DNA of 64,000 bases, from assembly GCF_003334815.1 (NCBI RefSeq), contig NZ_QOWO01000008.1; one strand, given 5' to 3'. Source of the stretch: Escherichia coli. Its GTDB lineage: Bacteria > Pseudomonadota > Gammaproteobacteria > Enterobacterales > Enterobacteriaceae. Below are positions 1 to 59,302 of this stretch, in pieces. The position numbers and the translations under genes were made by a program. Each line of letters begins with the position of its first letter. Position 1 is the first letter of the stretch. Under the pieces are notes generated by a model. That model ran no database searches and was not told the origin of the DNA. It saw only the letters and a list, made by a program, of their open reading frames with translations.

Positions 1-456
1 TTGATGGCTTACCTGTTCGGTGATTTGCTGGCAGTGACGCCAGAAGATCTCATCTCTATTGCGATTGGCGTGGTCATCGTGGTGGCTATTTTGTTCTGGC
101 AATGGCGCAATTTGCTGTCAATGACGATAAGCCCGGATCTGGCGTTTGTTGATGGTGTGAAATTACAGCGAGTGAAATTGTTGTTGATGCTGGTGACGGC
201 ATTGACGATTGGTGTAGCGATGAAATTTGTCGGTGCGTTGATTATTACTTCGTTGCTGATTATTCCTGCTGCTACTGCGCGTCGCTTTGCCCGCACGCCG
301 GAACAGATGGCTGGTGTCGCTGTTTTGGTGGGGATGGTGGCAGTGACTGGCGGTTTAACCTTTTCCGCGGTTTACGATACGCCGGCGGGTCCGTCGGTGG
401 TGCTATGTGCGGCACTGTTATTTATTCTCAGTATGATGAAAAAGCAGGCCAGCTAA
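1..456 (+). CDS. znuB: Zinc ABC transporter permease ZnuB, C-terminal part (5' end outside window)
   Basis: ORF runs from window edge; hydrophobic membrane protein; position upstream of ruvB as in E. coli. Confidence 0.8.
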
Positions 457-469
457 TCTATCGCTGAAC

Positions 470-1616
<1,147 letters not shown>

Positions 1617-1621
1617 TTACC

Positions 1622-2233
1622 TCATAACGCGGCGCGTAGGGCTTCGCGAATTAAAGTTTCACTGCTGGCGTCAGGGCGAGCGATTTTGCTCACCATGCGG
1701 CTTGCTTCTTGTGGTTTATAGCCCAGCGCCACCAGCGCGGCAACCGCTTCTTGTTCAGCATCGTCGGTCGCCGGGCTGGCAGGAGACGTGAGTACCAGGT
1801 CGGCGGCTGGCGTAAAGAGATCGCCATGCAAACCTTTAAATCGGTCTTTCATTTCAACAATCAAGCGTTCGGCGGTTTTTTTGCCAATACCCGGCAGTTT
1901 CACCAGTGCCCCCACTTCTTCACGCTCAACGGCATTAACGAACTGCTGCGCTGACATTCCGGAGAGGATCGCCAGCGCCAACTTCGGGCCGACGCCGTTG
2001 GTTTTGATCAACTCTTTGAACAATGTGCGCTCTTGTTTATTGTTAAAACCGTACAGCAGTTGCGCGTCTTCACGCACCACAAAGTGGGTGAAAACGATCG
2101 CTTCCTGACCCGCTTCAGGGAGTTCATAAAAACAGGTCATCGGCATATGCACTTCATAGCCTACGCCGCCCACTTCAATTAACACCAGCGGGGGTTGTTT
2201 TTCAATGATGATGCCTCTGAGTCTGCCTATCAC
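1622..2233 (-). CDS. ruvA: Holliday junction DNA helicase subunit RuvA
   Basis: 203 aa ORF immediately upstream of ruv[14 protein letters not shown]-terminus. Confidence 0.95.
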
Positions 2234-2282
2234 ATGACGCTCCTGCGTAATGAATCAAAGATAATGCTGTATGATAAAAAAA

Positions 2283-2302
2283 TGCTGGATAGATATCCAG
2301 CG
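2283..2302 (-). promoter_or_regulatory. LexA (SOS) box of the ruvAB operon
   Basis: Palindrome tgCTGGatagatatCCAGcg about 50 bp upstream of ruvA start; matches recalled ruvAB SOS box. Confidence 0.6.
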
Positions 2303-2507
2303 AAGGATGAAGAAAACTTGCGAGGTGTCTCGATGAACTGAAAAATGGCACAGTATAATTTATTCTACAGGTTATATTGGAAGCAAATATTTTAATATTA
2401 CATATTCAGTGAAGAAATGCGTAATAAAAATATACATTGCGCCTCCTGAAAAAATAAATTTTTTATGCTATTACGTATATTTGTATCTATTTCAATGGAA
2501 TGACAAC

Positions 2508-3110
2508 GTGAATATTAATTACCCTGCTGAATATGAAATTGGAGATATCGTCTTTACATGTATAGGTGCTGCCTTATTTGGTCAAATATCAGCTGCATCA
2601 AATTGCTGGAGTAATCACGTCGGGATCATTATCGGTCATAACGGTGAAGACTTCCTGGTTGCAGAAAGCCGGGTTCCCCTTTCAACCATCACCACGCTAT
2701 CTCGTTTTATTAAACGTTCGTCTAATCAACGCTATGCTATAAAGCGATTAGACGCTGGGCTGACAGAACGACAAAAACAACGAATTGTTGAACAGGTTCC
2801 CTCCCGGCTACGCAAACTTTACCACACCGGTTTTAAATACGAATCTTCGCGCCAGTTCTGTTCAAAATTTGTTTTTGATATTTATAAAGAAGCGCTATGT
2901 ATTCCGGTGGGTGAAATAGAGACGTTTGGAGAATTGTTAAATAGCAATCCGAATGCAAAACTCACTTTCTGGAAATTCTGGTTCCTGGGTTCTATTCCGT
3001 GGGAGCGTAAAACCGTCACGCCAGCCAGTTTGTGGCATCATCCGGGTTTGGTGTTGATTCATGCGGAGGGAGTGGAAACGCCTCAGCCGGAACTGACCGA
3101 GGCGGTATAA
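2508..3110 (+). CDS. yebB: Uncharacterized protein YebB (200 aa form, GTG start); six-frame ORF extends to 2409
   Basis: Translation [17 protein letters not shown]... matches YebB; AT-rich gene. Confidence 0.75.
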
Positions 3111-3111
3111 C

Positions 3112-3633
3112 TTAACGCAGTCGCCCTCTCGCCAGGTTCAGCCGCGATTCGCTCATCTGCATCGCATTCTGACTAACGTGGCAGTGGGTGATAGCAATCG
3201 CCAGCGCATCGGCGGCATCCGCCTGTGGATTAGCGGGCAGTTTCAGCAAGGTGCGGACCATATGCTGCACCTGGCTTTTTTCGGCACTGCCAATACCTAC
3301 CACCGTTTGCTTTACCTGACGTGCCGCGTATTCAAATACTGGCAACTCCTGATTCACCGCCGCCACAATCGCCACGCCGCGCGCCTGGCCCAGTTTCAGG
3401 GCTGAGTCAGCGTTCTTTGCCATAAAGACTTGTTCAATGGCGAAATAATCAGGCTGGAACTGGGTGATGATTTCCGTCACGCCCGCATAGATGAGTTTCA
3501 GACGAGACGGTAAATCATCCACTTTGGTGCGGATGCATCCGCTACCCAGGTAGGACAGTTGCCTACCTACCTGGCGGATGACGCCGTAGCCGGTCACGCG
3601 CGAACCCGGATCAATGCCGAGAATAATAGCCAT
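3112..3633 (-). CDS. ruvC: Holliday junction resolvase RuvC
   Basis: [19 protein letters not shown]-terminus, 173 aa. Confidence 0.95.
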
Positions 3634-3667
3634 CACGCGTCTCCGTTTTGCTGTTTAGCAGGCCTCA

Positions 3668-4408
3668 TCAGAGAGTCGCTGCGACCTCATCAGAGATTTC
3701 ACCGTTATGGTAAACTTCCTGCACGTCGTCGCAATCTTCCAGCATATCGATCAGACGCATCAGTTTCGGTGCGGTTTCTGCATCCATATCAGCTTTGGTA
3801 GACGGGATCATGGAAACTTCCGCGCTGTCTGCTTTCAGACCTGCCGCTTCCAGAGCGTCGCGCACTTTACCCATTTCTTCCCATGCAGTGTAGACATCAA
3901 TCGCGCCGTCATCATAGGTCACAACGTCTTCAGCACCTGCTTCCAGTGCTGCTTCCATGATGGTGTCTTCATCGCCTTTCTCGAAGGAGATCACGCCTTT
4001 TTTGCTGAACAGATAGGCAACGGAACCATCAGTACCGAGGTTACCGCCACATTTGCTAAATGCATGACGCACTTCAGCAACGGTACGGTTGCGGTTGTCA
4101 GACAGACATTCAATCATGATTGCCGTGCCGCCAGGACCGTAACCTTCGTAGATGATGGTTTCCATGTTTGCATCATCATCACCGCCCACACCACGTGCAA
4201 TTGCGCGGTTCAGTGTGTCACGGGTCATGTTGTTAGACAGTGCTTTATCCACCGCCGCACGCAGACGCGGGTTAGCGTCCGGATCGCCACCGCCCAGCTT
4301 AGCCGCGGTTACCAGCTCACGAATGATTTTAGTGAAGATTTTACCGCGCTTAGCATCCTGCGCAGCTTTACGATGTCTGGTGTTGGCCCATTTACTATGA
4401 CCTGCCAT
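3668..4408 (-). CDS. yebC: YebC/PmpR family transcriptional regulator
   Basis: 246 aa, [23 protein letters not shown] signature. Confidence 0.95.
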
Positions 4409-4436
4409 AAAAATATCTCCAGATAGCCCTGCCTGT

Positions 4437-4889
4437 TCAGGCAGCGTTAATTACAAACTGTTCAATCGCCTGCCGGTTGCTCCAGGACTTAGTGAGCGCC
4501 GCCGCAGCAGGCGCATCAAGCCACTTGTAAGCCAGATGTTCAGTGAAAACGATCTGCCGCTCGTGCGGAAGCGCAAGACAGAACCATGATTCCGTATTAC
4601 GCGTCACGCCCGGCGCATAGCGATGACGTAAATGTGAAAAAATTTCAAACTCTACCGTGCGCTGACAGTCAATTAAGGTCAGTTGTTCAGCGACAACATC
4701 AATGGTGACCTCTTCCTTTACTTCGCGCATGGCAGCTTGCGGCGCGGTTTCACCCTCTTCCACGCTGCCGGTTACCGACTGCCAGAAATCGGGATCGTCA
4801 CGCCGCTGCAACATCAGCACCCGTTTCGTATCTTGTGCGTAGATGACCACTAAGATCGAAACGGGACGCTTATACACTTTATCCTTCAC
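4437..4889 (-). CDS. nudB: Dihydroneopterin triphosphate diphosphatase (Nudix) NudB
   Basis: Nudix box present; 150 aa from an internal GTG start; ORF extended to 4946 in six-frame track. Confidence 0.85.
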
Positions 4890-5006
4890 GCTGCCTCTTC
4901 GTTGACTGCCTTCGCTCATCCCATTCACATAGTTATCTATGCTCATGGGAGTTCACTCAGTTGCCGCCTCGATGCAACGCGAATGATTTCGTGTATTTGA
5001 GTCATA

Positions 5007-6779
5007 TCAGTTATTCTCAGCCTTCTTCACAACCTGAATGCTCAGCTCAGCCAGTGCAGTCGGGTTAGCAAAGCTCGGTGCTTCAGTCATCAGACACGCT
5101 GCCGCCGTGGTTTTCGGGAAGGCGATAACGTCACGGATATTGTCGGTGCCGGTCAGCAGCATGGTCAGACGGTCAAGACCGAATGCCAGACCTGCGTGCG
5201 GCGGAGTACCGTATTTCAGAGCGTCGAGCAGGAAGCCGAATTTCTCGCGCTGTTCCTCTTCGTTGATACCCAGAATACCAAACACCGTCTGCTGCATATC
5301 ACCATTATGGATACGTACTGAACCACCGCCCACTTCGTAACCATTGATGACCATATCGTAAGCGTTCGCCACCGCATTTTCCGGTGCAGCTTTCAGTTCT
5401 GCAGCCGTCATATCTTTCGGTGAGGTGAACGGATGGTGCATTGCCGTCAGGCCGCCTTCACCGTCGTCTTCAAACATCGGGAAGTCGATAACCCACAGCG
5501 GTGCCCATTTGCTTTCGTCGGTCAGACCAAGGTCTTTACCCACTTTCAGGCGCAGTGCACCCATCGCGTCGGCAACAATTTTCTTGTTGTCGGCACCGAA
5601 GAAAATCATATCGCCATCTTGCGCGGCAGTACGATCCAGGATGTCTTCGATGATTTCTGCATTAAGGAACTTCGCTACCGGGCTGTTGATACCTTCCAGA
5701 CCTTTCGCGCGTTCGTTAACTTTGATGTAAGCCAGACCTTTCGCGCCGTAGATTTTAACGAAGTTACCGTATTCGTCGATCTGCTTACGGGTCAGCGATG
5801 CGCCGCCCGGAACGCGCAGAGCCGCTACGCGACCTTTCGGATCGTTCGCCGGACCTGCAAATACAGCAAACTCAACAGATTTCAGCAGATCAGCAACGTC
5901 AGTCAGTTCCATCGGGTTACGCAGATCCGGTTTATCAGAACCATAACGGCGTTCTGCTTCCGCAAAGGTCATTACCGGGAAATCGCCCAGATCCACACCC
6001 TTCACTTCCAGCCACAGATGACGCACCAGCGCTTCCATCACTTCACGCACTTGCGGCGCGGTCATGAAAGAAGTTTCCACATCGATCTGAGTAAATTCAG
6101 GCTGACGGTCAGCACGCAGGTCTTCGTCACGGAAGCATTTAACGATCTGATAGTAACGGTCAAAACCGGACATCATCAGCAGCTGTTTGAACAACTGCGG
6201 GGATTGCGGCAGTGCGTAGAATTTACCTTTGTGCACACGAGAAGGCACCAGGTAGTCACGCGCGCCTTCCGGCGTGGCTTTGGTCAGCATCGGAGTTTCG
6301 ATGTCGAGGAAGCCGTGGTCATCCATAAAACGGCGCACCAGGCTGGTGATTTTAGCGCGGGTTTTCAGGCGCTGAGCCATTTCCGGACGACGCAGGTCGA
6401 GGTAGCGGTATTTCAGACGCGCTTCTTCGGTGTTGACGTGGTTAGAGTCAAGCGGCAGAACATCTGCGCGGTTGATGATAGTCAGCGAGGACGCCAGCAC
6501 TTCGATTTCGCCGGTCGCCATATCGCGGTTAATATTTTTTTCGTCACGCGCACGTACGGTGCCCGTGACCTGAATGCAGAACTCATTACGCAGTTCAGAG
6601 GCCAGCTTTAACGCGTCCGCACGATCCGGATCGAAAAATACCTGCACGATACCTTCGCGGTCGCGCATATCGATGAAGATCAGGCTACCAAGATCACGAC
6701 GACGGTTGACCCAACCACACAGAGTCACCTGCTGCCCCACGTGGGACAAACGGAGCTGTCCACAATATTCTGTACGCAT
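5007..6779 (-). CDS. aspS: Aspartate--tRNA ligase
   Basis: 590 aa class II aa[26 protein letters not shown]. Confidence 0.97.
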
Positions 6780-7088
6780 GAGATATCCCTTAACTTAGCT
6801 GCCGGCGGATGCCCCCTGCTGCGCAGGTGACCAAGTCGCAGCGTTAGCTGTATGTCACAACTGAATGAAAAAAGGCGGCTATTATACTGGAAATTCTGCC
6901 GCACCGTAAGAGCCTGGCCCGCGCTGGAACGCCTCGTTACCACTTTATATCGGGCCTGAAATCAGACTCTACGCCAGTTTGCTATAAAGGTGTTGCCCGA
7001 ACTCATAAAAATTAACAAAATTTGTCGTTCCGCCATCGGCTAATCGCATTAAGGTGTGAGGCACGATTTTGTTTTTTCAGGAGTCATT

Positions 7089-7655
7089 ATGCTTGAACTT
7101 AATGCTAAAACCACTGCGCTGGTGGTGATCGATTTACAAGAAGGCATCTTACCTTTTGCCGGTGGTCCACATACTGCCGATGAGGTAGTTAATCGCGCCG
7201 GGAAGCTGGCGGCGAAATTTCGCGCCAGCGGTCAGCCCGTGTTTCTGGTGCGCGTTGGCTGGTCTGCCGATTACGCTGAAGCATTAAAACAGCCGGTCGA
7301 TGCGCCCTCACCGGCTAAAGTGTTGCCCGAAAATTGGTGGCAACATCCTGCTGCATTAGGTGCAACCGACAGCGATATCGAAATCATCAAACGTCAATGG
7401 GGTGCGTTTTACGGTACGGATCTGGAGTTGCAATTACGCCGCCGAGGTATCGATACAATAGTGTTATGTGGGATCTCGACCAATATCGGTGTTGAATCCA
7501 CCGCCCGCAATGCCTGGGAACTTGGCTTTAATCTGGTGATTGCCGAAGACGCCTGTAGTGCCGCCAGCGCCGAGCAGCACAATAACAGTATCAACCATAT
7601 CTACCCGCGCATCGCCCGTGTGCGTAGCGTGGAAGAGATCCTCAACGCGTTATGA
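7089..7655 (+). CDS. yecD: Isochorismatase-family hydrolase YecD
   Basis: [17 protein letters not shown] start, 188 aa; six-frame ORF begins at 7056. Confidence 0.85.
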
Positions 7656-32512: not shown

Positions 32513-33396
32513 GCTTCCTCGGTTGTCGTCTGTTGTTGCGGATTTTTCACCGCACGCACATGCTCTTCCAGTTCAATAAACGACGGACGTTCGCTGGAAT
32601 AGAGCGTTTTGCGACCAAACTCAACGGCGATAGGCGGTGCGTAACCGTTCAGATTAGAAAGCAGAGTGACTTTGACGCACTGCATCATTTTGCTGGTTTC
32701 GGCGCTTTTCTGACGTAAAACAGTCGCTAATGGGGAAATAAATCCGTAAGCCAATAAAATGCCGAGGAAAGTCCCCACCATCGCATGTGCGATAAGCGCA
32801 CCCAGCTCGGCGGCAGGACGATCGGCTGAACCTAACGCGTGAACGACCCCCATTACAGCCGCAACAATACCAAACGCCGGAAGTGAGTCCCCGACCAGCG
32901 CCAGACTGTTCGCCGGGACTTCTGCCTCGCTTTCGTGCGTCTCAATCTCTTCATCCATCAGAGCTTCGATTTCGAAGGTGTTCATGTGACCGCTGATAAT
33001 CAGGCGCAGATAATCGACGATAAAATCAAGCATGACGCTATCCGCGAGGATGCGTGGGTAGCTGGCGAAGATCTCGCTCTCACGGGGATTTTCAATATCA
33101 CGTTCCAGCGAAAACATCCCCATCTGCCGCGATTTCGCCATCAACCGATAAAGCAGAGCCAGCAGATCCATATACATTGCTTTGGTGTATTTGGAGCGAC
33201 GAAACAGCAACGGCAGCGCCTTCAGCGTGCCTTTAATCGCTTTGCCATTATTGCCGACGATAAACGACCCAATCCCTGCACCGGCAATAATCACCAGTTC
33301 AGCGGGTTGATAGAGTGCTCCAAGGCTTCCACCGGTCATCAAATAACCGCCGAAAACTGTACCGAGAACAACCAGGTAACCTAATAAGATAAGCAC
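32509..33396 (-). CDS. motA: Flagellar motor stator protein MotA
   Basis: 295 aa, stop overlaps motB start. Confidence 0.97.
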
Positions 33397-33464
33397 GACA
33401 TCATCCTTCCACTGTTGACCATGACAGGATGTTCAGTCGTCAGGCGTTAACGCGCGATTGGGGC

Positions 33465-33496
33465 AAAAAAAAGCAGCGGTACGTCGTTACCGCTGC
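33465..33496 (-). terminator. Rho-independent terminator after flhC
   Basis: gcagcggtaacgacgtaccgctgc hairpin plus T8 on minus strand. Confidence 0.75.
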
Positions 33497-33522
33497 TGGA
33501 ATGTTGCGCCTCACCGTATCAG

Positions 33523-34101
33523 TTAAACAGCCTGTACTCTCTGTTCATCCAGCAGTTGTGGGATAATATCGGCAGGATTCTGGGAAAGTTTACGTCTTTT
33601 TACTGCCCGGGATGGCGGTTGACATAAGCTGCAGGCAAAGCTGCCAACAGGCTGGTGAGCGTGGGTAATAAAATTGCCGCCGCAGCAGTTGCAGCTGGAA
33701 AGTTGCAGTAATCCACTTTCAACAAACCGCACCAATGTCCAGGCACGGGTTAATGCCAGCAGTGGTCCTTCTTCTGCTTGTGGGCACTGTTCAAGGTATA
33801 AACGGTAGGCTTTGATCACCGCATCGACGCCATTACACAAACCGGTTTTCAGTAAAAACTGCCATGCATTACAGAACATCGAAGCATGAACGTTTTGTTC
33901 CCAGGTCATAAACCAGTCGGTTGAGAATGGCAGCATGCCTTTCGGCGGTGGGCTTCCGCGCAGTTCTTTATAAAGTTTTATCAGGCGTCCGCGACTTAAC
34001 TGTGTTTCGCTTTCCAGCATCTGCAAACGAGCGCCCAGGGTGATCAATTCCATTGCCAGCTGAATATCCCGCGCTTCCTGAACAATGCTTTTTTCACTCA
34101 T
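33523..34101 (-). CDS. flhC: Flagellar master regulator subunit FlhC
   Basis: 192 aa, [20 protein letters not shown]. Confidence 0.97.
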
Positions 34102-34103
34102 GA

Positions 34104-34454
34104 TCAGGCCCTTTTCTTGCGCAGCGCTTCTTCAGGCTGATTAACATCATTCAGCAAGCGTGTTGAGAGCATGATGCCGGTATGAATTTGCTGGAGATCG
34201 TCAATGCGGGAATCTTGCGTCAACTGAGTAATCGTCTGGTGGCTGTCAAAACGGAAGTGACAAACCAGTTGATTGGTTTCTGCCAGCTTAACCATTTGCG
34301 GAAGAGTCAGTGCCGCTAACGTTGTCGCCATTTCTTCATTTATGCCGAGACGAAACATAGCGGACGCTTTGTCCTGAACAATCAAACGCTGTGCAAGTAG
34401 TAAATATGACAAGTTGATGTCATAAATGTGTTTCAGCAACTCGGAGGTATGCAT
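34104..34454 (-). CDS. flhD: Flagellar master regulator subunit FlhD
   Basis: 116 aa from [22 protein letters not shown]. Confidence 0.95.
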
Positions 34455-34715
34455 TATTCCCACCCAGAATAACCAACTTTATTTTTATGCGGTTTCACCG
34501 CACCCCGTGATGTCGCCGGGAAGCCCCGGTAAAAAATAATTAGCATTAGAATAGTTGCGATAAGCTGCAATAAGCAGAACCACCTTTTTGGTTTAATATG
34601 TCCTTACAAATAGAAATGGGTCTTTACACTTATCTAAGATTTTTCCTAAATCGACGCAACTGTACTCGTCACTACACGCACATACAACGGAGGGGGGCTG
34701 CGATTTTCAATAATG

Positions 34716-34731
34716 TGTGATGCAGATCACA
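34716..34731. promoter_or_regulatory. CRP binding site in the flhDC promoter
   Basis: Perfect TGTGA-N6-TCACA core about 70 bp upstream of the expected flhD transcription start. Confidence 0.7.
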
Positions 34732-35233
34732 CAAAACACTCAATTACTTAACATAAATGTATAAGTCATACTTTTGTTTTGGGTGTATTTCAATCTGTTA
34801 AAAAGTTTTTCGCTACGCTAGCAAGCAAAAATGAAACAGGAATAATCGAAATGGGATGTTGCGCACAGTCAAAATAACTCACCGTAAATAATCATCTGCT
34901 ATAAATAATCACTTTCATGCAATACCAGATAAGCTATTTTTAAACAGACACTTACCGCACAACAAACTAATTAAATACAAAGAAAGGCAACAATCAACTT
35001 AATGTTAATGAAATGTTTTACATATATTAACCACTTGTTTAATGCGGAGAATCAGTACACTATTTTCTTATAATTACATTTGAAATTATATGATCACCGG
35101 GAGTGATTGATTAATTGTCTTTACTAATAATCAGACTAATATTTACCTGTTTGACCGAGTTGGGATTGCGTCGTTTCTCCATTAGGAGTAAAGCTTTAAT
35201 GTCACCTGAAGTTCACAGAATAAGGAACAGGTT

Positions 35234-35662
35234 ATGAGCTATAGCAATATTCTTGTCGCTGTTGCGGTTACACCGGAAAGTCAGCAACTGCTGGCAAAAG
35301 CGGTATCTATCGCCAGGCCAGTAAAGGGACACATCAGTTTAATTACTCTCGCTTCCGACCCGGAAATGTACAATCAATTAGCTGCGCCGATGCTTGAAGA
35401 TTTACGCAGCGTGATGCAGGAAGAAACGCAAAGCTTTCTTGATAAGTTAATTCAGGATGCGGGGTATCCCGTTGACAAGACGTTTATTGCCTACGGTGAG
35501 TTAAGCGAACATATTCTGGAAGTATGTCACAAGCATCATTTCGATTTGGTGATTTGCGGTAATCACAATCACAGTTTCTTTTCGCGAGCATCCTGCTCGG
35601 CGAAAAGAGTTATTGCCTCAAGTGAGGTCGATGTGCTGTTAGTTCCACTTACGGGAGATTAA
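35234..35662 (+). CDS. uspC: Universal stress protein C
   Basis: 142 aa Usp fold. Confidence 0.93.
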   Translation: MSYSNILVAVAVTPESQQLLAKAVSIARPVKGHISLITLASDPEMYNQLAAPMLEDLRSVMQEETQSFLDKLIQDAGYPVDKTFIAYGELSEHILEVCHKHHFDLVICGNHNHSFFSRASCSAKRVIASSEVDVLLVPLTGD

Positions 35663-35668
35663 CCGCTC

Positions 35669-39021
<3,353 letters not shown>

Positions 39022-43440: not shown

Positions 43441-43702
43441 CGCGGCACTCCGACCATTTGTTATACAGGTGTTATTGTCTTTGCGCTTATAATATGACAA
43501 CCATCACAAAAATCAATCTTTATGTGATACAAATCACATAAATACCCCTTTAATGTTATAAAAATGATAATCAAAAAACAGCCCCCCTATTTCTGACACC
43601 TACAGATGGCAAGAAATAGCGCCTGCCAGGCGTCTTTTCCGGCCATTGTCGCAGCACTGTAACGCGTAAAATAGTGCTTTCTCTTACTCTTCTGGCTGGA
43701 CC

Positions 43703-44731: not shown

Positions 44732-44971
44732 TCAGTGACGGCAAATCTTACTCTGATCGGTCGAAAAACCGTCTTTCGAAGGTATAAATTTGCCTTTTGC
44801 TGCCAGAAACGCTACCAGCTCTCCCGCTGTCATCCCTTCTGCCGAGCAGGTGTGAAAACGTGCCTGTTCACCAAAACGCGCTTTAATCGCAGCTTCCAGA
44901 CTGGCATGCGTATATTGCTCGCCTGATTCAATCATCATATTTAACACTTCATGACCGTGAATAGAGTCCAT
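44732..44971 (-). CDS. yecH: DUF2492 family protein YecH
   Basis: 79 aa ORF. Confidence 0.85.
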   Translation of the reverse strand: MDSIHGHEVLNMMIESGEQYTHASLEAAIKARFGEQARFHTCSAEGMTAGELVAFLAAKGKFIPSKDGFSTDQSKICRH

Positions 44972-57589: not shown

Positions 57590-59302
57590 TTAACCCTGCA
57601 GCAGAGACAGAACCTGCTGCGGTACCTGGTTAGCTTTTGCCAGCACGGAGTTACCTGCCTGCTGAATAATCTGCGCTTTCGACATGTTGGACACTTCGGT
57701 CGCATAGTCGGCGTCCTGAATACGGGACTGCGCTTCGGACAGGTTGGTAGTGGTGTTGTTCAGGTTGGTGACTGCGGAATCCAGACGGTTCTGCACGGCA
57801 CCCAGGGAAGAACGGAATTTGTCTACGGATGCGATAGCATCGTCCAGCGCTTTCAGCGGATCCGTGGTCGCTTCAGATTTACCTGTAGCTTCAGTGGTCA
57901 GAGAGCCGTCAGCCGCTTTATACAGAGCCGCGCCGTCATCATCCAGAATATTGCCGTTAGCAAATTCGTGATAAGTTTCTGTGACAGTCTTGTTGGCCGC
58001 AGTCGTCAGTTCACCCTCAGCACCAATATTTACGGTCGCTCCACCTGTAGTAGCAGTTACTGCACCATCAGCGGCAACGTCATAAGACTGTGCGCCGTTA
58101 GCTACGGTATAAGCCTGACCGGTTAACGCAGTGTTCATATCTTCGGCGGATACCGTCGCGCCCTTAATATCCACATTGTTGCTAACCTGGGTGAAGTCAA
58201 CGGTCATGCCGCTGCCGAAGGTAATCTTCGCATCAACTGCATCATGACCATTCGCACCGTTGAAAATACCGTCCAACGTTGCCGCGGCTGGGCCGCCGGC
58301 CTGGTTTTTCGTCAGGTTACCGTCAGCACCAATGTATAAAGCATCGCCATTAGTATCCGTCAGGGTACCATCGCTGGCAATTTTAACTTCCTGAGCGCTA
58401 CCACCGATGGAGATCTGAGCCGTGTTATCGCCGTTTGCTGCATAGGCTTTCAGAACATCAGCAACTTTAGTTGAGCCCGCAGTACCATCACCATTAGTAA
58501 GTGCGGTTGCGTCAAATGAATAAGACTTGCTGGTTGCGTTGTAGGTATATGCAGTAGAAGCCGCTACGCCTAACCCATTGTTTGTGCCAGCATAACCGCT
58601 AATAGTGCTGCCGCCACTAACGCTAGCCAGCACATCGGTAGCTGTTGCTGCATTAAAGGTAGTAACAGTAGATTTAGTCCAGGTGCTATTGCCACTGACA
58701 ACTGCACTTTGGGAGAAGCCCGCAGCGGTCAGATCTGCTTCAGTGGCTTTTGCATTATCAACAGCGCCTTTACCGTTGACGTTGAAGCTGGTCAGCTTCA
58801 GTGTAGAAGAGTCGATTTTTTTCAGGTCAATCGTGATGGTTTCACCATCATTTGCGCCCACCTGAATTTTCATTGAACCGTCTTTGGACAACACATTCAC
58901 GCCATTGAACTGGGTCTGACCAGATACGCGGTCAATTTCATCAAGACGAGATTTGATTTCGTCCTGGATGGAGTCCAGGTCAGAATCGGAGTTAGTACCG
59001 GTAGTGGCCTGAACCGTCAGTTCACGGATACGCTGTAAGTTGTTGTTGATTTCGGACAGCGCGCCTTCGGTGGTCTGCGCAACGGAAATACCGTCGTTGG
59101 CGTTACGTGCAGCCTGAGTCAGGCCTTTAATGTTAGAAGTAAAACGGTTAGCAATCGCCTGACCCGCGGCGTCATCCTTCGCGCTGTTAATACGCAAGCC
59201 AGAAGACAGACGCTCGATAGAACTCGACAGCGCAGACTGGTTCTTGTTGATATTATTTTGAGTGATCAGCGAGAGGCTGTTGGTATTAATGACTTGTGCC
59301 AT
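57590..59302 (-). CDS. fliC: Flagellin FliC (H-antigen), 570 aa allele with a non-K-12 central domain
   Basis: Conserved N-terminus MAQVINTNSLSLITQNNINKNQSALSSSIERLSSGLRINSAKDDAAGQAIANRF and C-terminus ...QVPQQVLSLLQG; central region differs from the 498 aa K-12 H48 flagellin. Confidence 0.95.
   Translation of the reverse strand: MAQVINTNSLSLITQNNINKNQSALSSSIERLSSGLRINSAKDDAAGQAIANRFTSNIKGLTQAARNANDGISVAQTTEGALSEINNNLQRIRELTVQATTGTNSDSDLDSIQDEIKSRLDEIDRVSGQTQFNGVNVLSKDGSMKIQVGANDGETITIDLKKIDSSTLKLTSFNVNGKGAVDNAKATEADLTAAGFSQSAVVSGNSTWTKSTVTTFNAATATDVLASVSGGSTISGYAGTNNGLGVAASTAYTYNATSKSYSFDATALTNGDGTAGSTKVADVLKAYAANGDNTAQISIGGSAQEVKIASDGTLTDTNGDALYIGADGNLTKNQAGGPAAATLDGIFNGANGHDAVDAKITFGSGMTVDFTQVSNNVDIKGATVSAEDMNTALTGQAYTVANGAQSYDVAADGAVTATTGGATVNIGAEGELTTAANKTVTETYHEFANGNILDDDGAALYKAADGSLTTEATGKSEATTDPLKALDDAIASVDKFRSSLGAVQNRLDSAVTNLNNTTTNLSEAQSRIQDADYATEVSNMSKAQIIQQAGNSVLAKANQVPQQVLSLLQG

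Follow-up and report, generated by a model that had tools for sequence, protein, structure and literature searches.

An IS-free flhDC control region of the standard Escherichia coli type, very probably from a wild-type strain close to but distinct from K-12

Organisation of the flhD-uspC intergenic region

The window analysed here is a stretch of Escherichia coli DNA of 64,000 nucleotides, in which flhDC and the divergent neighbouring gene uspC lie on either side of a long spacer (Table 1). Open reading frames (ORFs) and the MG1655 annotation placed the borders of this flhD-uspC spacer exactly at the ends of the interval singled out in an earlier note on the same DNA, 34455-35233, and divergent flhD and uspC genes are the flanks expected of a flhDC class 1 control region. 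The earlier note had also called the interval AT-rich, and its GC content of 35.0%, versus 50.4% for the whole window, bears this out: just 0.26% of all 779-bp windows fall below that value.

Table 1 Features of the flhDC-uspC locus in the window (coordinates count from the first nucleotide of the window).
Feature	Position	Strand	Remarks
flhC CDS, 192 aa	33523..34101	-	protein identical to that of MG1655
flhD CDS, 116 aa from the ATG annotated in MG1655	34104..34454	-	I84 in place of V84
AsflhD antisense RNA equivalent	34433..34652	+	MG1655 1978176-1978395; annotation transferred by ungapped alignment
flhD-uspC intergenic region	34455..35233		779 bp, 35% GC; uninterrupted, no IS
flhDC 5' leader, 198 nt	34455..34652	-	transcription start G at 34652 (inferred)
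RcsAB-box-like TAAGATTTTTCCTA	34635..34648		+5..+18; read from sequence
Predicted weak sigma-70 core promoter	34659..34687	-	-35 TTGTAT (34687-34682), 17-bp spacer, -10 TACAGT (34664-34659); from spacing to the transcription start
Perfect CRP core TGTGA-TGCAGA-TCACA	34716..34731		centre 34723.5, -71.5 from the inferred transcription start at 34652
TTAA, IS5 hot-spot target	34748..34751		-99..-96; occupied in W3110, empty here
CATAAATG, target duplicated around MG1655 IS1H	34752..34759		single-copy here
Zone with two more IS1 targets	34769..34797		34769-34777 (AF56) and 34789-34797 (NCTC9008); both single-copy here
uspC CDS, 142 aa, divergent neighbour	35234..35662	+	Q62 (codon 62 at window 35419) versus H62 in MG1655

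The transcription start of flhDC was placed at the G at 34652 because the published IS5 hot spot, a TTAA whose bases lie at -99 to -96 relative to the start of flhD transcription (PMC5100188), then falls exactly on 34748-34751. The MG1655 annotation also has AsflhD ending, on its 3' side, at this same base. With this start, the flanking sequence accommodates a weak sigma-70 core promoter, in which six bases separate the -10 hexamer TACAGT from the +1 G. Since the two hexamers agree with the consensus at just 7/12 positions, the promoter went unseen in a consensus scan of 34300-35400, which returned neither promoter nor terminator sites; so poor a match would fit dependence on CRP, and an empty scan, though to be expected of a weak promoter that needs an activator, does not count as positive evidence. 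Natural polymorphisms occur within the inferred core promoter at 34662 and 34686, with strain M2021-10044802/2-E carrying TAAAGT, nearer to the consensus, where the window has TACAGT, and strain 25-07338 carrying a change inside the -35 hexamer.

The leader of flhDC, 198 nt in length, carries GGA motifs at +7 (34644-34646) and +50 (34601-34603), which we take to be CsrA sites, and the small RNAs described in the literature as binding this leader include OxyS. An SD-like GGGTGGGAA stands directly upstream of the flhD ATG. The leader has been documented as a hub for McaS, ArcZ, OmrA/B, other sRNAs and CsrA (PMC3634460). Over its full extent it is identical to that of MG1655, without a single SNP, and when folded together with the first 30 nt of the ORF it was no more stable than shuffled sequences (z = -0.97), a value that lends no independent weight to a special structure. 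Near its 5' end lies TAAGATTTTTCCTA, presumably the RcsAB box as given by Francez-Charlot et al. in 2003. RcsAB is among the proteins that bind the flhDC regulatory region (PMC5493358). On the opposite strand, the antisense promoter of AsflhD, located in the literature at +22 of the flhD ORF, corresponds to window position 34433.

The IS-free arrangement and its prevalence

The earlier note had stated that the spacer contains neither a transposase ORF nor the terminal repeats of an insertion sequence (IS), and our searches led to the same result. No ORF in 34455-35233 reaches 60 aa. With up to three mismatches allowed, IS1 ends were absent from the whole window, and the sole resemblance to an IS5 end in the window was a chance match with three mismatches at 44882, outside the spacer. 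The longest inverted repeat within the spacer spanned 17 nt with 76% complementarity, and direct repeats bracketing an insert were not found there. A target-site duplication, of 4 bp for IS5 or 8-9 bp for IS1, is likewise absent, both TTAA and CATAAATG being single-copy. Thus, the comparison that the note had proposed, covering IS ends, target-site duplications and the structure of IS-bearing K-12, was negative on all three counts. Nor does any IS lie in the stretch from about -96 to -476 relative to the start of flhD, as it would in an IS-activated allele; transposase ORF, ends and extra length are all lacking.

To see this arrangement in its species context, we turned to a survey set of 5,426 complete E. 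coli genomes. The 779-bp spacer was present in 5,422/5,426 of these, and dozens of wild isolates matched it over the full 779 bp at 100% identity. In six divergent lineages, O157:H7 included, it measured 778-780 bp and aligned end to end at 95-99% identity, with 70 variable columns and SNPs spread fairly evenly; a collinear spacer of ~779 bp without extra DNA is what is expected of the class 1 control region.

Insertions greater than ~0.7 kb are not bridged in such a search, and the region was therefore split into two queries of about 430 bp. The flhD-proximal query (34425-34844) matched 5,402 genomes, 5,272 of them with ≥80% in a single place and 139 with two places; the corresponding numbers for the distal query (34815-35263) were 5,419, 5,367 and 51. 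Taking places minus records over the two queries as a proxy for interruption, a count that misses insertions smaller than ~0.7 kb or within ~30 bp of query ends, a large insertion splits the region at some point in about 190/5,426 genomes, and roughly 96% are uninterrupted. Many of the interrupted genomes are probably K-12 laboratory derivatives. The IS-free form is the rule among E. coli and does not distinguish the present sequence; it is the IS-bearing K-12 laboratory strains that are unusual. Because the IS-free arrangement is common to all sampled lineages, it represents the ancestral state, as the earlier note had supposed.

The CRP half-site and the origin of the source strain

A perfect CRP core, TGTGATGCAGATCACA, had been reported in the earlier note at 34716-34731, and it is found precisely there. 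The window contains two perfect TGTGA-N6-TCACA cores, compared with 0.05 expected by chance, and a fortuitous match is therefore unlikely. Relative to the inferred start at 34652, the centre of this core falls at the position expected for a class 1 control region; Soutourina et al. in 1999 reportedly placed the CRP site of flhDC at -71.5. The second core in the window, at 43523-43538 (TGTGATACAAATCACA), corresponds to MG1655 1988042-1988057 and is found about 40-55 bp ahead of azuR/azuC, as measured from its annotated 5' end; it is probably the CRP site of that gene.

While the perfect core is present, it is not a special feature of this sequence, as the earlier note might have led one to think, and represents instead the common E. 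coli allele. The window 61-mer around the site has an exact match in 2,864 of 5,426 genomes, and a second haplotype that also carries T at 34716 does so in 973, so that T-bearing haplotypes match exactly in at least 3,837/5,426. The K-12 haplotype, with C at this position, matches exactly in 399 genomes, mostly laboratory derivatives together with some wild O25 strains. All six sampled lineages have T at 34716. The same TGTGATGCAGATCACAC occurs about 280 bp upstream of flhD in Enterobacter sp. CC120223-11, this outgroup evidence coming from one genome and from a 16-nt pattern with at least 120 mostly chance matches, one of which, among the matches listed, adjoins flhD. The presence of T in the sampled lineages and in the Enterobacter outgroup indicates that the CGTGA half-site of K-12 is the derived state. 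The K-12 reference is therefore atypical at the flhDC locus twice over, carrying both an IS insertion and an imperfect CRP half-site.

We considered whether flhDC might receive less basal activation by CRP from the weaker half-site of K-12, which could in this way help to explain both the poor motility of IS-free K-12 stocks and the ready selection for IS insertions in them, whereas IS-free wild strains such as the present one would be adequately motile without an IS. Built on the base comparison at 34716, this idea is speculative and, in our judgement, rather unlikely to hold; a second and weaker suggestion of the same kind is that the rare V84I substitution in FlhD may alter the activity of FlhD4C2.

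That substitution (codon 84, window 34205) sets the window apart from MG1655, W3110, two wild strains and the Enterobacter outgroup, all of which have V84. A 61-mer containing the I84 change had an exact match in 1/5,426 genomes, the calf isolate 52F4. Alanine scanning has reportedly pointed to a role of FlhD residues 82-84 in DNA binding. In the structure paper on YdiV-FlhD, neither V84 nor its neighbouring residues came up in a text search.

How the source strain relates to K-12 changes along the window. Within the first 34.7 kb the window differs from MG1655 by 8 substitutions, without any indel, and the number of substitutions reaches 12 over the first 51 kb; near 51 kb, in the uvrY/yecF/sdiA area, divergence climbs from about 0.02% to about 2%. 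Further along, fliC (57590-59302, minus strand) encodes 570 aa where the K-12 gene encodes 498 aa, and the variable region of the window gene (about 57868-58847) gave no alignment to K-12 fliC. Strains including 1303, MB06232 and 52F4 have the same fliC allele. Judging by this pattern of divergence, the position at ~51 kb looks like a recombination boundary, and fliC looks like that of a different H antigen. The flagellar genes in the surroundings appear intact, with fliC, fliA, fliD, fliS and fliT all open.

The small number of differences over the first 51 kb, and the fact that over 25 kb K-12 genomes score nearly level with the best wild genomes, would be compatible with a window taken from a laboratory lineage of K-12 that is IS-free at this locus (BW25113, for instance, or an MG1655 stock of poor motility) and not from a wild-type strain outside K-12. 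IS-free K-12 lineages do exist: in BW25113, flhDC is IS-free and largely cryptic (PMC5493358), and the arrangement is like that of the window, with no structural difference. Absence of an IS alone can therefore not indicate that a sequence is not from K-12. Nevertheless, the window lacks the K-12 haplotype of the spacer, of flhD and of fliC. Two SNPs in the spacer separate it from MG1655 (34716 and 35117), the former in the CRP site, where its haplotype is that of 2,864 genomes and not that of K-12's 399; neither MG1655 nor W3110 has I84, which, as a 61-mer, is shared with 52F4 only; and the 570-aa fliC, unmatched in K-12 over its variable region, lies within DNA that past 51 kb diverges by ~2%. 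On the basis of the spacer SNPs, FlhD V84I and fliC we conclude that the source is not K-12, and we reject a K-12 laboratory origin as very improbable and effectively refuted.

The IS-free state could also be secondary, a former IS having been lost through precise excision or through recombinational replacement with an IS-free allele. Losses of this kind are known, as an flhD-proximal IS5 has disappeared from the K-12 biofilm isolate JS111 (PMC5100188); the window itself shows a jump in divergence near 51 kb that resembles recombination, and a precise loss would leave no trace in the sequence. Against this, there is no footprint at any of the four targets (34748-34751, 34752-34759, 34769-34777 and 34789-34797 are all single-copy), and the spacer is identical to that of many unrelated wild isolates. 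As the IS-free form is common across lineages, ancestral retention is far more parsimonious, and we consider secondary loss highly unlikely. Least credible of all is that the spacer conceals a further element, be it a small mobile one, a structured RNA or a gene missing from the annotation, a notion encouraged by its length and AT-richness, by two ORFs of 40 aa (34598-34720 and 35115-35237, the only ones within it) and by the antisense RNA AsflhD already annotated here in MG1655, but countered by equal length in all lineages, the fairly even spread of SNPs over those 70 variable columns, the lack of any Rfam match in 33000-36000 at E <= 1, the lack of terminator-like or promoter-like consensus sites and of significant repeats, and an MG1655 annotation of the spacer that holds nothing further besides IS1H and AsflhD.

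Taken together, we are highly confident that 34455-35233 represents the standard flhDC class 1 control region of E. coli in uninterrupted form, derived from a wild-type strain that is near K-12 but is not K-12. Nothing in the sequence was found to contradict this reading, and a wild-type IS-free flhDC control region is ordinary, already known biology.

Proposed regulation and comparison with known flhDC loci

The earlier note had described the region as a regulatory hub, and the literature documents it both as such a hub and as a hot spot for IS insertion (PMC5493358, PMC5100188, PMC3634460). In the arrangement that we propose, flhDC transcription would start at 34652 on the minus strand from the weak sigma-70 promoter TTGTAT-17-TACAGT, which would need cAMP-CRP at the perfect site, the centre of which is at -71.5, in a geometry typical of class I activation. 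The AT-rich DNA from ~-96 to beyond -476, together with the early transcribed region, would provide sites for the repressors H-NS, LrhA, OmpR, RcsAB, Fur, IHF, MatA and YjjQ, while the 198-nt leader would be targeted by CsrA and several sRNAs and overlapped by the antisense AsflhD. Because the silencing DNA upstream is not set apart from the promoter by an IS, flhDC would be expected to remain under full environmental control, a repression that IS1 or IS5 insertions in K-12 stocks relieve. In K-12, insertions at -96 to -476 raise flhDC expression and motility, and insertions in the leader or in the ORFs abolish motility (PMC5100188). The anatomy of the region, the absence of an IS, the collinearity, the allele frequencies and the sites of the K-12 insertions were established from sequence comparison; the transcription start, promoter hexamers, RcsAB box and CsrA sites were assigned by position and from the literature, and regulator binding and the consequences of an IS-free spacer for the motility of the source strain are likewise taken from the literature or inferred.

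With a normal, fully regulated flhDC promoter, the source strain should show motility that depends on conditions and is not constitutively raised as in MG1655 and W3110, and passage on soft agar would be expected to yield motility-enhancing IS insertions in 34748-35128. The practical value of these observations goes little beyond bookkeeping, with the base in the CRP half-site and FlhD V84I as minor side notes.

Disruptions of the same locus are found in five isolates outside K-12, in agreement with the view expressed in the earlier note that strain-to-strain differences arise here. The blood isolate AF56 carries IS1 at 34769-34777 with a 9-bp duplication and flanks that match the window at 99.8-100%, with one mismatch, and NCTC9008 carries IS1 at 34789-34797, again with a 9-bp duplication, in flanks 100% identical to the window. 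In IAL7255, an IS of ~1.1 kb interrupts the CRP site; the overlap, at 34710-34718, is 9 bp. AUSMDU00014361 has lost about 235 bp (about 34592-34847), and with them the promoter, the transcription start and the CRP site; in E05, a deletion bounded by IS1 reaches from about 35012 across flhDC, motAB and cheAW as far as part of tar. These independent events affect the same locus, whose hot zone borders the CRP site on its upstream side, and the window has no such disruption.

Of the K-12 references, MG1655 has in common with the window the flanking genes, the promoter, the leader, the RcsAB-like box and the position of AsflhD. Unlike the window, it carries IS1H (768 bp, insA5/insB5; b1893/b1894), inserted after window position 34759, at about -107, and flanked by two copies of the 8-bp CATAAATG, of which the window has one. 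The IS1H duplication is of 8 bp, and the IS1 duplications in AF56 and NCTC9008 are of 9 bp. A further sequence, NZ_CM184145.1 ('K12 MG1655 laboratory stock'), matches just 34752-34844 of the proximal query 34425-34844, which suggests a deletion that may have removed flhD and its promoter beside the IS1H site.

Alignment to both references substantiates the statement in the earlier note that K-12 carries IS1 or IS5 at this place, IS1H being found in MG1655 and IS5 in W3110, and in each case removal of the IS and one copy of the duplication restores the sequence of the window. In MG1655 this leaves 777/779 bases equal to those of the window, the two exceptions being C at 34716 (T in the window) and A at 35117 (G in the window); MG1655 also differs in FlhD, with V84 where the window has I84. 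In W3110 the spacer measures 1978 bp, that is, 779 + 1199, with IS5 breaking it at the TTAA at window 34748-34751, and the flanks of IS5 match the window at 99.7-99.8%.
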